44,280 bases of DNA from Promethearchaeota archaeon (GCA_013375475.1 JABXKD010000025.1:1-44280), one strand, 5' to 3'. Shown: positions 15,624 to 29,298, counted from the first letter of the stretch. Made by a program: numbers and translations. Notes: generated by a model not told the origin, from the letters alone.

Positions 15624-15653
15624 TAAATTCAGCGTCTGATTTCAATGAAAATT
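15624..15653 (+). repeat. Double-palindrome intergenic motif, copy 1
   Basis: TAAAT TCAG-CGT-CTGA TTTC-AAT-GAAA ATT, followed by an extra TTC-CTT-GAA unit. Confidence 0.9.
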
Positions 15654-15752
15654 CCTTGAAATTAAGTTAGGAAACATAAGGGGAATCTTTATGTGGTAAT
15701 CTTTATTAATCTAAAAAAATTGCATTCTAATATTCTAGGAGAGTGCTTAAAA

Positions 15753-16274
15753 ATGGTTAGAAAAACTACAAAAAATGAGCTGATAGAGCTTGTGAAAACT
15801 ATCAGACTTTATGGAAACCGTATGTTGAAAGGGTTAAAAGAAGATGAAGTAGCTTGGGTTCCAGAAAATACCAAAGGAAGATCAATTGAGAGTTATTTAA
15901 GACATATTCTGAATGCGGAGTCATATTGGTATAATATGATAAAGGATGGTTCATATGAAATTTTTTCCAAAGGTATTGGTTTTAATGATTTAGTTAATAG
16001 TTTTAAAAAACACGAGACTACAATCCTTACTTTAATAGATAATGCTGAGGATGATGATTTCAATCTACGCACTCCTGAGTGGGAAGGAGATAATTATCAA
16101 AAGTTAAAAAGTAGAGGAACCCTTGCCTGGAAAATTTACAGGACTTCTATGCACGCAATTCATCATTTTGGGCAAATAGCACATATTCGATTCAGTTTGG
16201 AGAATCCCCCTACCGAAAAAATTGATGACTATTCAGATCCTTGGGGTTATATATGGATCGGATTGTTTTCATAG
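15753..16274 (+). CDS. DinB/YfiT-family protein
   Basis: RSIESYLRHILNAESYW and HAIHHFGQI His motifs; ATG 15753 preceded by AGGAGAG. Confidence 0.8.
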   Translation: MVRKTTKNELIELVKTIRLYGNRMLKGLKEDEVAWVPENTKGRSIESYLRHILNAESYWYNMIKDGSYEIFSKGIGFNDLVNSFKKHETTILTLIDNAEDDDFNLRTPEWEGDNYQKLKSRGTLAWKIYRTSMHAIHHFGQIAHIRFSLENPPTEKIDDYSDPWGYIWIGLFS

Positions 16275-16305
16275 CCCATTCTGATGAATAGATTAATAAA
16301 GAGGG

Positions 16306-16767
16306 ATGAATATGAATGAAAAAATGTTTATTGTAACAGATATGAAATATCATATAATAAAAGTAGGAAGATCTAAGAATCCATACAAAAATTTGAAAAC
16401 AATTCAAAAAAACGATAGTAATGTATTGGAGATAGTTTGTGTTTTTAAAGAAGATATTGAAAAAGACATAAAGGAGTTGTTGAAAGAATATAAAATTCGA
16501 GGAGATTGGTACTATCCCAACCCAAAAATCCTGCTAAAAATCCAAGAAAAATATCTTCCAAATAATCGAGTATTAGCTACATTTATTAATGATTTATTTG
16601 GAGAATTAAAAATCGATAATCAACCTATTTGCTTATGCTGGGTAGACGATGATGAGAGTAGATGTCAATTCAAACGACATAAGACTTCGCTTATTACATG
16701 TGAATCCTATGAAATCTGGAAAGCTTGTGTAAGAAAGGAAGAAAAAGAAATAGATTTCGGGGATTAA
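16306..16767 (+). CDS. GIY-YIG-like (T5orf172-type) nuclease-domain protein with Cys-rich tail
   Basis: IIKVGRSKNP..L..IQ, IEKDIK...RGDWY pattern; C-terminal CLC..C..C..C. Confidence 0.65.
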   Translation: MNMNEKMFIVTDMKYHIIKVGRSKNPYKNLKTIQKNDSNVLEIVCVFKEDIEKDIKELLKEYKIRGDWYYPNPKILLKIQEKYLPNNRVLATFINDLFGELKIDNQPICLCWVDDDESRCQFKRHKTSLITCESYEIWKACVRKEEKEIDFGD

Positions 16768-16817
16768 CGATAGATTTATTATTATTTAGTAAAAAATTTT
16801 TGGAAATATCTGAATTT

Positions 16818-18254
16818 TCAAATTGAGAAAGAATAGAGTATTGCATTTCTTAAATGGAATTTAAACTTAATTTCACTATTTAAACTGGTTGAATTTGGGT
16901 TTTTCATGGTAATTTTTAGTTTTTCATCCACGCATGTTTTCTCAATTACACCATTTCCTAATATGTTATTATTATCATTTAGAACAGTAACCTTAACGTA
17001 CCCTCCATCATCTATGTCAGCAGAAAGTCCTAAATCACTACCATCCCACGGAATGGGTACTGTAGTAATATTGGATTCCAGTGTATTGTCTACAGATTTA
17101 TAACCAGCGAATCCATCTGGTCGTAACGTAGCTAAACAAAAATATCCCTTTCTCCAATCTGTGTGAGGTCCATCACTTCCTGAATAATATAACCGAATTT
17201 CATTATCTAAGATAATGGGAGATTTTGCGGCGTAGATACAACCCCAATCAATATCCCCTTTTATTTCACTATTTGGGATTAATGTTGTCCCAGGACATAT
17301 TCTATACCATTTAATTGTATCAGGACTCCAAGCTAATTCTGTTTGTACAGTATCTGTTTTTGTGTCAAAAATCGCTGGTAGTCCGAGATAAATCCCATAA
17401 TATTCAAATATTGGCATTGAGTAAATCTGTAAATGATCTTCATTTCCTTCAAATATAGGTTCTGTAAGAGTCCATGTTTTATAATCCAAACTTTCACTTC
17501 GCCCAACAATTCGAATTCCTATTTTTTTTCCATTGTTATCCTTTGATAGTTTCCACATTCGAGTAATTAAAACGTATTTTTCTATTGTTGGGGCCCAAAT
17601 CGCATTATTATGAGTATCCCCATTCCATTTAATTAGGTTTTTTACTTCTTCACTTACTTTTTCAATATTAGGACAAGCTTGAGGTTTTGACCATTTTAAT
17701 CCATCATTTGAGGTACAAATAAACATACTTCTTCCATTATCATTTGCTAAGATCAGTTTATATCTCTCATTGGGTTCTTCTATAAAATCATCTTTAAATA
17801 AACCCGCACCGTGATTATTCCTTAAAACAATATTGTTTTCTTTACTATCATTGAATTCTATAGTGTTTAAACTTGGTTTCTCCCAAATAATTCCATCTTT
17901 TGAGATTGCATAACAAATACCCATTTCTCGACTTTTTTTGCTACCATACTTGACATTAATTTCATGTAATCTTTTGATATAACTCCCAGGTTTCTTCTTT
18001 TTGTTCTTTGTTTTACTCGTTGCATAATCAATAATAAAAGGACTATACCAACATCGATAACGTGCTTGATTATTAGTTGTATCAAAAATAATATTTGCAT
18101 ATAAATTATCAAACCTGGGCTCCCAAAGTTTATCTTCGGTAAAAAGAGGATTATTTATACTTTTATTAACTTTCCCAAGTGTTAATATACAATTTTCTGA
18201 GTGTTTAGTTACACGAGAATCTAATAACAGGTATTTTTTTGGAATAATATCCAT
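16818..18254 (-). CDS. Five-bladed beta-propeller glycoside hydrolase-like protein
   Basis: Asp-box-like repeats (SKDGIIWEKP, SNDGLKWS, SLDYKTW, SPDTIKW), IRLYYSG, LRPDGF before a beta-sandwich. Confidence 0.7.
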   Translation of the reverse strand: MDIIPKKYLLLDSRVTKHSENCILTLGKVNKSINNPLFTEDKLWEPRFDNLYANIIFDTTNNQARYRCWYSPFIIDYATSKTKNKKKKPGSYIKRLHEINVKYGSKKSREMGICYAISKDGIIWEKPSLNTIEFNDSKENNIVLRNNHGAGLFKDDFIEEPNERYKLILANDNGRSMFICTSNDGLKWSKPQACPNIEKVSEEVKNLIKWNGDTHNNAIWAPTIEKYVLITRMWKLSKDNNGKKIGIRIVGRSESLDYKTWTLTEPIFEGNEDHLQIYSMPIFEYYGIYLGLPAIFDTKTDTVQTELAWSPDTIKWYRICPGTTLIPNSEIKGDIDWGCIYAAKSPIILDNEIRLYYSGSDGPHTDWRKGYFCLATLRPDGFAGYKSVDNTLESNITTVPIPWDGSDLGLSADIDDGGYVKVTVLNDNNNILGNGVIEKTCVDEKLKITMKNPNSTSLNSEIKFKFHLRNAILYSFSI

Positions 18255-27749: not shown

Positions 27750-27902
27750 TTTTCTTACCGTCAGATTTTAAGTCGTTTTTCTATTGCGTATTGAACTATA
27801 TAAAAGCTTGAAATAATTAAAACTAAATGAAAATTTGGTAATAACCAGTATACACAACGAATAAACTAGAATTTGAAATAAGAAAGAAAAGAAAAATGAA
27901 AA

Positions 27903-29102
27903 TTAAATATTTTCTATTATCGTAGCTTCCGAAAGTCCTCCACCACCACATAAAGTGGCTAAACCGTAAGAAGAGTTCCTTCTTTTCATTTCGTGAATTA
28001 GGGTTACGATAATTCTCGCACCAGTACAGCCTACAGGATGCCCTAATCCAATTCCTGAACCATTAACATTAGTTATGTCATTGTTCCAATTTAATTCTTC
28101 AGCCACGGCGCAGTATTGCGCAGCAAATGCTTCGTTGCATTCAATTAAATCTAGATCTTTTAGTTCCATATTCGCTTGCTTTAGTGCTAATGGTGTTGAA
28201 TACATTGGGCCCATACCCATGTATTTAGGATCGTTCCCTATTTTAGCAATTGTTTTTATTTTGGCGAGTGGAGTTAAACCTAATTCTTGAGCTTTGGCAT
28301 TAGTAGCTAACAAGACAACACAAGCTCCATCGTTTATCCCTGAAGCGTTCCCTGCTGTAACTGTTCCGTCCTTCTTAAATGCCGGCCTTAATTTTTGGAG
28401 TGCCTCCATTGATTGACCAGGTCTAAAATGTTCGTCCTTTTCGAATAGATAAGTTTTCTTACGTGTTTTTACTTCTATAGGCACTATTTCATCTTTAAAT
28501 GTACCATTATTAGTTGCATTTTCAGCGTTGTTCTGAGAACACAATGCGACCTCGTCTTGCATTTGACGAGTGATCCCATATTTTTCGGCAATATATTCGG
28601 CTGTCATACCCATTATATATGAATCTTGGGGGGCATAGATCTTACTTCACGCGTACAATCCTTCCATAATTCCACATACCATTTCTTTGTTGTCCAATCG
28701 CGCACCAAATCGAGCTGACGGTAAGTAGTAGGGGATGTTACTCATGCTCTCAACACCGCCCGCTAGCACGACATCACCGTGCCCTGCTAAAATATCAACC
28801 ATTCCTGCCCTTACTGCTTCCATTGCAGAAGTACAAACTCTGTTAATAGTCATTGCTGGGACTTCAACTGGTATCCCAGCCATAAATGACGCTACTCTCG
28901 CTACGTTCATCTCATAACTTGACTCATTGCAGCAGCCACTTTTGATATCAGATATCACTGACGGATCGATTCCAGTCGATTCCACACAATCTTTTATCAT
29001 TAAACTTAACAATTGACTTGCCTTATAAGGTAAAAGAGATCCTCCAAAAGAACCAATTGCAGTCCTTTTAGCATAACATATGACTACTTCTTTACTTTCC
29101 AT
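27903..29102 (-). pseudogene. Thiolase paralog interrupted by a single in-frame TGA
   Basis: Colinear 1200-nt paralog of 11405..12604; GLYA*SKI versus GLYAGSKI (GGA->TGA at 28647-28649); no frameshift. Confidence 0.85.
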
Positions 29103-29148
29103 TATTTTTCCAACTTTAATTTTTTTCAAATATAAATGTTAAATCATA

Positions 29149-29173
29149 ACGATTTATTAGAAAAAGTAATCGT
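29149..29173. promoter_or_regulatory. Candidate operator upstream of thiolase 2 (ACGATT-N13-AATCGT)
   Basis: Perfect 6-bp inverted repeat, matching the site at 11334-11358. Confidence 0.4.
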
Positions 29174-29268
29174 AGATAATAATTATTTTTATTGTCTTCA
29201 AAAAAAACCCGAATTTACGTAAAAAATCTAAAACTAGGAAAATAGAGGCTCTTGTCAAATCTAGAAAT

Positions 29269-29298
29269 AAAATTCAGAGTCTGATTTCGATGAAAATT
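29269..29298 (+). repeat. Double-palindrome intergenic motif, copy 5
   Basis: AAAAT TCAG-AGT-CTGA TTTC-GAT-GAAA ATT then CCTTTGAAAA. Confidence 0.9.

Follow-up and report, generated by a model that had tools for sequence, protein, structure and literature searches.

A candidate junction site between gene modules in one family of Asgard archaea

Asgard genomes are large and contain many acquired genes, and the machinery of their import is poorly known. The DNA considered here, which we call the window, is a 44,280-nt stretch from a Promethearchaeota archaeon (GCA_013375475.1 JABXKD010000025.1:1-44280), taken at its full length, in which a short double-palindrome motif occurs five times. Comparison of these copies with those of related genomes strongly supports, at the level of sequence, the conclusion that co-oriented sites delimit independently assorting gene modules. 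We think it probable that each of the five motifs represents a junction, or crossover, site confined to a single Asgard family, and the site looks like the joining point of an integron-like cassette system with a new kind of site.

Anatomy and conservation of the element

Exact matches to the core pattern TCAGNNTCTGATTTCNNTGAAA number five in the window, all on the + strand and all situated between open reading frames (ORFs), with starts at 15629, 19939, 24650, 26887 and 29274, each 5 nt downstream of the start of the 30-bp motif delineated by an initial annotation of this DNA. None of 100 dinucleotide-preserving shuffles of the window contained any match, and allowing up to three mismatches on both strands of the window gave no further copy (0.09 expected). 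That annotation had described five co-oriented copies at gene boundaries and no full copy elsewhere in the window, and it was exact in this, as it was in the loop sequences (CGT/GGT/CGT/AAT/AGT in dyad 1 and AAT/ATT/AAT/CTT/GAT in dyad 2), the identity of copies 1 and 3 over 30 bp (15624-15653 and 24645-24674) and the copy-to-copy distances of 4310, 4711, 2237 and 2387 bp.

Alignment of 57, and then 263, copies from relatives revealed a conserved unit of 36 nt, from about -11 to +24 around the TCAG, with the sequence GAAAGGTAAAT-TCAG[A/C]GTCTGA-TTTCAATGAAA-ATT; it contains 11-bp units which, as read from the sequence, lie 11-12 bp apart. The 30-bp unit first proposed thus has a real core and is too short, both for the block and for the third dyad that most copies carry. 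Nearly all positions of the block are 87-100% conserved among the 263 family-wide copies, the exception being +4 (A in 51%, C in 41%), and loop positions other than +4 are 86-97% conserved, figures in which the conservation of the core is somewhat overestimated, the copies having been detected by pattern and by a hidden Markov model built from pattern-selected seeds. The invariant arms and variable loops noted at the outset are therefore a property of the five window copies, and family-wide +4 is the only loop position that truly varies; the argument that variable centres betray protein-bound dyads is weakened because the whole block is conserved as sequence. Single-strand DNA folds of the window copies are no better than those of shuffled sequences (z -1.62 to +1.60; six folds, 200 shuffles each). 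The two dyads taken separately show no enrichment in the genome over spacing controls, and on this ground separate dyads acting as a genome-wide operator were rejected. As part of the crossover-site explanation taken as a whole, it is probable that the block is conserved as double-stranded sequence and serves as the functional unit.

Outside the block the element is more varied. Downstream, most copies carry either a degenerate third dyad, TTYCNNTGAAA, or an alternative class, ATTTAGTGAAAAA, and upstream, roughly a third of copies have a hairpin-like CCAATTTTC-NNN-GAAAATTGG, again containing TTTCNNTGAAA. In long forms, a TTTAAA-like sequence also precedes the core by about 45-50 nt. The five copies in the window are as follows.

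15618-15664, + strand: copy 1, core 15629-15650, including the lead-in GAATGATAAAT and a third dyad (nhmmer 15618-15661, E 5e-12)
19926-19961, + strand: copy 2, core 19939-19960, without the third dyad (nhmmer E 3e-8)
24627-24674, + strand: copy 3, core 24650-24671, without the third dyad; gives the Fe-S protein gene at 23445-24647 its TAA and final six codons
26829-26932, + strand: copy 4, long form, core 26887-26908, with a third dyad and an upstream hairpin-like unit
29270-29309, + strand: copy 5, core 29274-29295, with a third dyad

The upstream unit of copy 4 is a hairpin-like sequence of 8-9 bp, CCAATTTTC-TGT-GAAAATTG, holding a further TTTCNNTGAAA, and the whole 104-nt stretch, which is common to many loci, is 88% identical to positions 210-311 of contig C155 of the same genome.

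Arrangement of copies and reassortment of modules

The arrangement of the element was compared across 140 non-redundant loci holding 269 copies (nhmmer E ≤1e-4). Neighbouring copies within 10 kb have the same orientation in 129 of 131 pairs, their spacing has a median of 1242 bp (interquartile range 921-2144, minimum 105), and 261 of the 269 copies lie outside ORFs of ≥90 aa. The orientation of the element is independent of that of the genes around it, the flanks of the 217 classified copies being convergent in 53 cases, divergent in 53 and tandem in 54 and 57. These equal classes, with 53 of 217 copies between convergent gene ends, argue against a promoter, operator, terminator or untranslated-region element. 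We consider it very improbable that the block is the operator of a transcription factor acting over an accessory-gene regulon, which the initial annotation had kept as the alternative, or a small RNA gene. Copies 1, 2, 4 and 5 of the window do lie 124-172 nt upstream of minus-strand gene starts, and the TTTAAA-like stretch of the long forms would also suit such a role; however, copy 3 is placed between two 3' gene ends, the co-orientation of neighbours would go unexplained, and the folds are not significant. No match to Rfam 15 or to a CRISPR direct repeat falls at any copy at E ≤5, none in the window reaches the gathering score (two chance-level matches, E 1.5 and 1.9, lie away from the copies), and ARAGORN finds no tRNA or tmRNA in the window.

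On a larger scale, the arrays of the complete genome G122 have + orientation at 0.73 Mb and again at 2.24 Mb, and - orientation in between, at 0.85-1.83 Mb; the orc1/cdc6 genes of this genome stand at 1.93 Mb, beside xerA, and at 2.73 Mb. The polarity of these arrays, five clusters in all, is compatible with co-orientation with replication forks without proving it. Distant clusters on contig C55 of genome G115 are opposite to one another (71579 on the - strand, 123901 on the +), and local GC skew relative to motif orientation is positive in 16 cases and negative in 16.

Two side observations concern the position and orientation of copies. A one-mismatch variant, TCAGAATTTGATTTCAGTGAAA, occurs at G124:C497:7449, G135:C19:32646 and G135:C42:24393, each time opposite to the neighbouring copies, and makes up four of the five opposite neighbour pairs counted by eye among the matches listed; this variant may instead be some other sequence, such as a portion of a gene. 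A ribosomal protein S11/S4 operon adjoins arrays in six to seven loci (L012:6162-7570, L018:8746-10000 and four to five others), a hint that arrays in some cases occupy conserved positions in the chromosome.

Evidence on what the element does comes from comparing the flanks of copies at different loci, for which 241 of the 269 copies had both flanks of ≥320 nt. Homology was found on the left only in 34 pairs, on the right only in 55 and on both sides in none; the pairs are not independent, and fall into 20 left-only and 19 right-only groups that are independent. The homology breaks inside the block, 31 of the 34 left-only alignments ending at +22 to +41 and 49 of the 55 right-only alignments beginning between -34 and -5. 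The element itself is divided in the same way between its two neighbours. In a linkage test using 20 and 22 pairs, positions at or left of -7 were co-inherited with the left flank only (at -12 agreement was 0.95, against a background of 0.43 and 0.50 in right-sharing pairs), and positions at or right of +25, that is the third dyad, with the right flank only (at +27, 0.95, against a background of 0.41 and 0.25 in left-sharing pairs). Linkage thus switches between -7 and +25, which places the point of exchange inside the invariant block.

Individual cases point the same way. Locus L075 has the arrangement [A]-site-[B] where L035, from genome G054, has [A]-site-1083 bp-site-[B], a precise difference of one module, and the single site of L075 is like the left site of L035 up to +11 and like its right site from +17, a single case to which we give low weight. 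A 919-bp GNAT module bounded by sites recurs at L020 (G002, genus g1), L083, L072, L113, L066 and L032 (G122, genus g21) with 85-94% identity; the XerA region of the two genera is 72-76% identical, a rough baseline taken from one gene. That modules would be gained, lost or shuffled at the motif in relatives had been anticipated by the initial annotation, and is borne out by the one-sided homologies and by the 1,083-bp presence/absence case.

The junctions of the window can be followed in some of these relatives. In G002, the closest of them, the left flank of copy 1, a beta-lactamase-family gene, is 96% identical, and beyond it stands an inverted homologue of the window epimerase gene (35886-36968), not the DinB-like gene. 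At copy 3, the TAA within GGTAAAT is the stop codon of the Fe-S gene (ORF 23445-24647), orthologues of which in six other genomes end in a native TAG with no motif after it. A paralogue on C111 (90% identical) has the same junction as copy 3, with homology stopping at +24, and the TAA of the site serves as the stop of three unrelated genes. Copy 3 has replaced the native stop of the Fe-S gene, which may be a snapshot of module formation. Homology between G054:C92 and the window begins at copy 5 (29270) and runs to 29420. G002 gives a different picture: most window genes are present but rearranged, and of the roughly eight boundaries that we count as altered, only two bear a motif in the window. 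Synteny breakpoints therefore coincide with the motif, as they had been expected to, in the comparison between loci, where breaks fall inside the block, and do so at only two of about eight boundaries between G002 and the window. At the thiolase-ADH junction G002:C92 is without 127 bp around copy 5 (window 29199-29327), is otherwise collinear, and has TTCAAAA on both sides. This difference, the only case in which both flanks are retained and the motif is missing, needs a separate explanation, such as microhomology deletion. Deletion rather than transposon insertion is suggested because its left part, the 75 nt preceding copy 5, has no second occurrence in the genome or in any locus compared, and because copy 5 is present in G054.

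The absence of 29199-29327 from G002, bracketed by TTCAAAA, also speaks for a small non-autonomous element, similar to a miniature inverted-repeat transposable element (MITE) or a palindrome-associated transposable element (PATE), inserting strand-specifically as IS200/IS605 derivatives do and co-oriented by the direction of replication. Such an element would have short hairpin-like units, which are present, and the orientation pattern of G122 would fit its replichores. We think this explanation improbable: two-sided flank homology would be expected, and none was seen as against 89 one-sided cases; the ends of the element are not fixed, its constant part being confined to -11 to +24; its folds are no better than shuffles; and there is no Y1 transposase in the genome. 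The G002 case itself is turned by the uniqueness of the 75 nt left of copy 5 and by G054, which shares copy 5 and its right flank and so suggests a loss in G002.

Alternatively, the block could be the binding site of a chromosomal protein (architectural, insulator or fork-related), with modules reassorting by homologous recombination or gene conversion at repeats of 36-100 nt. The block is conserved whole, most loop positions included, its 11-bp units spaced 11-12 bp apart would fit cooperative dimer binding, no recombinase is linked to it, and the points of crossover seem to be scattered across the block instead of falling at one place; in addition, the array orientations of G122 appear to fit the fork directions expected from its two orc1/cdc6 genes. 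Homologous recombination alone, however, leaves unexplained the 129 of 131 co-oriented neighbours, their clustering at 1.2-kb spacing and the presence of the same module in new contexts in other genera, and the distant clusters of G115:C55, opposite in orientation, and the lack of enrichment of the separate dyads elsewhere in the genome also speak against it. On balance we judge this explanation unlikely.

For the crossover site that we favour, we propose the following mechanism. The 36-nt block would be the functional unit, the variable 5' extension travelling with the upstream module and the third dyad with the downstream module. Modules would consist of one to a few complete genes with their own promoters, in either orientation, and conservative recombination inside the block would insert, excise and exchange them. 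A module in circular form, bearing one site, would integrate into a resident site to leave two direct repeats, which would produce the co-orientation of neighbours and hence co-oriented arrays, and the recombinase would be encoded away from these arrays.

Distribution, module content and the search for an enzyme

The host genome (3.9 Mb, 288 contigs, 32.5% G+C) encodes four actin-family genes (best E 2e-132) and contains nine exact copies of the pattern, the five in the window and others on C41, C111, C155 and C233, together with three weak ones. With up to one mismatch allowed, 35 of the 41 genomes in genus g1 carried the pattern, as did 38 of the 40 in genus g21, and it occurred sporadically in g12 (1/7), g15 (2/10), g18 (2/5) and g23 (1/1); seven further genera of the family had none, and nor did any of 16 genomes from three other families of the order. 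The reversed pattern, used as a control, gave no match in any genus. An exact scan of one genome per species across 185,579 species matched at least 117 stretches, and all of the 80 titles listed from these are Asgard or 'uncultured archaeon' metagenome-assembled genomes (MAGs), the titles of carrier records naming Promethearchaeota or Promethearchaeia; CDP-archaeol synthase is encoded at the motif locus of one relative. Together with the actin-family genes of the host, this identifies the organism as an Asgard archaeon, in line with what the initial annotation had taken for granted. The scan of the host and other Asgard genomes that the initial annotation called for thus finds a motif that recurs in two genera and is restricted to one family. 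Viral carriers were considered and rejected, the three IMG/VR matches all being chance matches in coding sequence without the flanking block.

The element also appears to fragment assemblies. In the host assembly, C41 and C155 each terminate within about 310 nt of a copy (at 290-311 and 268-289, respectively), and Logan contigs of four sediment runs (X1-X4) break at copies, with an increase of about 2- to 25-fold in summed depth there; site-to-site joints in Logan contigs have short sides of 21-35 letters, which do not extend past the repeat and so would not reveal circles or deletions. Since the element breaks assemblies, arrays are probably under-counted in MAGs.

The modules between the five window copies, which contain genes on both strands, are as follows.

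15665-19925: module 1, with DinB-like (15693-16274, +) and MUG113/GIY-YIG-like (16306-16767, +) genes, then a 478-aa protein that could be assigned to no known family (16818-18254, -) together with a 512-aa beta-lactamase-family protein (18276-19814, -)
19962-24626: module 2, with a nucleotidyltransferase/tyrosine-phosphatase fusion (20406-21827, -), DUF362 (22049-23254, -) and the Fe-S protein (23445-24647, +)
24675-26828: module 3, with a NosD/right-handed beta-helix protein (24807-26714, -)
26933-29269: module 4, with an HpcH/HpaI aldolase (26994-27749, -) and a thiolase (27903-28613 and 28647-29129, -) split by one in-frame TGA

The genes of module 1, minus the DinB-like one, are found in G002 in a rearranged order, and the aldolase gene of module 4 has no DNA-level match in 41 other genomes of the genus. 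The remainder of the window encodes an oligopeptide ABC transporter, glycosidases, dehydrogenases and esterases. Among 109 ORFs in 20 loci there are seven GNATs, four alpha/beta hydrolases, three NosD-like proteins, two adenylyltransferases and many small proteins without a family, and the recurrent neighbour families across 152 loci are NosD-like (28), alpha/beta hydrolases (22), TPR (18), GNAT (12) and the ribosomal-protein operon (6-7), NosD-like proteins being the most recurrent neighbours of the element. This cargo resembles that of chromosomal integrons.

Several further features of the gene content were observed. The thiolase gene has an inverted duplicate in the window (27871-29208, -, and 11299-12636, +; 85.7% identical); in G002 its orthologue is an intact 399-aa ORF, and there is no second thiolase copy between the solute-binding protein gene and GH32. 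An unrelated 59-nt inverted repeat (83% identical) lies at 14331-14389, downstream of GH32, and at 37123-37181, near the epimerase gene, and also occurs beside GH32 in G002 (L021:6974-7052). Luciferase-like monooxygenase genes (1058-1975 and 37388-38293) and PHP-domain genes (33311-34165 and 38504-39364) are each present twice, and the window as a whole has the look of an island of accessory metabolism that contains paralogues. In a few loci a protein of 125-127 aa with no Pfam match recurs inside arrays (L003:1265-1645, L097:4620-5000, L116:2418-2792); its N-terminus resembles by eye a ribbon-helix-helix DNA-binding motif, and the protein could represent either a cassette of antitoxin type or a factor that binds the site. 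Another recurrent protein, Cys-rich, some 90 aa long and without a Pfam family, occupies a short module, roughly 500 bp in length, that lies between copies (six loci, among them L033:10088-10360).

Considering the enzyme that such exchange would need, the host genome has one tyrosine recombinase (PF00589), a XerA-like protein of 309-317 aa on contig C55, and with this single match no IntI-type recombinase. This conserved XerA-like protein is the sole classical candidate in the host genome. Tyrosine-recombinase matches occur in 38 of 42 genomes of the genus, mostly as one protein of about 315 aa, and none lies on any contig listed with the motif; in G122 the XerA-like gene directly adjoins an Orc1/Cdc6-like gene (G122:C1:1930540-1932384). 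No recombinase is present among the window genes. A search for Y2/IS91 transposases gave no match in the host, nor in any control genome, and one TnpB-like gene is present in the host, on C242. A TnpB/omega-RNA reading of copy 3 was rejected, the gene upstream of it encoding an Fe-S protein and the lone TnpB-like gene lying on C242. Suicidal integration of the SSV type was likewise rejected, as the flanking ORFs are diverse complete genes.

A number of these results weigh against an enzyme-directed cassette system. No recombinase occurs among the recurrent neighbour families of the 152 loci, serine recombinases, Y1 (PF01797) and IS110 transposases are all absent from the host genome (the Y1 search gave matches in 6 of 14 control genomes), and tblastn with the host XerA-like protein found no match in any motif locus. 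Tyrosine recombinases are also present in the genus genomes G005, G022, G023 and G042, which are without the motif. Inverted repeats of 11 nt with a spacer of 4-10, sought from -20 to +45, reach a best of 7-8 of 11 in 195 of 228 copies, and AT-rich controls do so in 160 of 228; with no such repeat above background, the site is unlike the core of a tyrosine-recombinase site. No circle or excision product was seen, and homologous exchange in the 36-nt block would leave equal footprints. The 127 bp missing at copy 5 in G002, the changed G002 boundaries without the motif and the overestimated conservation of the core count in the same direction.

Taken together, the proposal of recombination sites of an undescribed cassette system stands in so far as modules assort at the site, and goes beyond the data in that neither a circle, an excision event nor an enzyme has been seen. 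The suggestion that the enzyme is encoded elsewhere is strongly supported by the comparative data, no recombinase being linked to the arrays, and the check for co-occurrence of the motif with a tyrosine or serine recombinase came out negative, none being linked and the XerA-like protein being present in motif-less genomes too. Within the crossover-site explanation, to which we attach better-than-even confidence as a whole, we infer that exchange is enzyme-directed and site-specific and that it passes through a circular intermediate, and the XerA-like protein is a candidate for its enzyme. That one Asgard (Promethearchaeia) family runs its own cassette system, with several small arrays per chromosome and an unlinked recombinase, either XerA-like or of a new class, we regard as a serious possibility that falls just short of an even call.

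A lineage-specific, sequence-defined junction site would provide a handle on gene flow in Asgard archaea that can be tracked in metagenomes, and the site could also serve as bait for recovering the protein that binds it and be examined in vitro. If the cassette explanation is true, the system would be a main route by which these Asgard archaea gain and exchange accessory, often bacterial-type, metabolic genes, and cassette arrays of integron type would be shown to have come about on an unrelated site, with no integrase of their own beside them, which bears on the origins of cassette systems. Were it no more than a hotspot of recombination bound by a protein, the element would still flag the regions in which these genomes vary.

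Comparison with known systems

As a conserved block of about 36 nt repeated in one orientation in an archaeal host, the element invites comparison with clustered regularly interspaced short palindromic repeats (CRISPR), but its minimum spacing is 105 bp and its median spacing 1242 bp, with whole genes between copies, and a simple k-mer scan found no CRISPR array in the host assembly, its three matches being coding tandem repeats. It is also short, conserved, intergenic and lineage-specific, with small hairpin-like units, in the manner of the repetitive extragenic palindromes (REPs) and bacterial interspersed mosaic elements (BIMEs) mobilised by REP-associated tyrosine transposases (RAYTs), and of PATEs and MITEs. 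Unlike all of these, it is present in few copies, about 9-15 per genome, in co-oriented arrays; it lacks the terminal inverted repeats or constant ends of MITEs and PATEs outside -11 to +24; its flank homologies are one-sided and break inside the repeat, which sets it apart from MITEs; and it is accompanied by neither the Y1 transposase nor the significant hairpins of PATE and REP-RAYT systems. The aloposon (PMC8813620) is unrelated.

The Xer/dif modules, that is pdif modules and the integrative mobile elements exploiting Xer (IMEX), are closer in plan, being bounded by short sites and served by a housekeeping recombinase encoded elsewhere, and the lone recombinase of the host is XerA-like. 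Modules of the pdif type are found on Acinetobacter plasmids, and their sites alternate in orientation, whereas those described here are co-oriented. The dif-type sites, archaeal XerA/dif included, have 11-bp inverted arms and a 6-bp spacer (PMC2958812). The present site has inverted repeats no better than controls, and the early judgement that it is neither attC-like nor dif-like holds on this count and on that of the attC boxes. The pair R''(RYYYAAC)/R'(GTTRRRY), with boxes complementary to one another and separated by 50-150 nt, was sought from -90 to +112 of the core and was found at none of 228 copies, as at none of 228 control positions 250 nt downstream, and GTTRRRY occurs within -14 to +38 in 10 of 269 copies.

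Other differences from integrons are of the same order. The attC site is conserved as structure and not as sequence, whereas the block is conserved as sequence across two genera and forms no significant single-strand hairpin (z -1.62 to +1.60), and in place of generally co-oriented integron cassettes the ORFs here stand in either orientation (53/53/54/57), each presumably under a promoter of its own. Ghaly et al. (2022, PMC9668308) report that integron cassettes are generally co-oriented and that archaeal integrons are enriched in Asgard MAGs, mostly as clusters of attC sites lacking integron integrases (CALINs). No description of the 36-nt block was found in the literature, although overlap with the attC clusters of PMC9668308 is possible. 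IntI usually lies at one end of an integron array; since CALINs also lack it, its absence alone does not exclude membership of this class, and most arrays of the present element, like CALINs, have no adjacent integrase. With attC arrays, CALINs and the chromosomal integrons of Vibrio the element shares co-oriented sites about 1 kb apart between unrelated accessory genes; attC clusters are taken as at least two co-oriented sites less than 4 kb apart, and the present copies are co-oriented in 129 of 131 neighbouring pairs at a median of 1242 bp. The likeness extends to a cargo rich in GNATs, hydrolases and small ORFs of unassigned function, and to modules that occur in differing contexts, one of which has been gained or lost precisely at the site.

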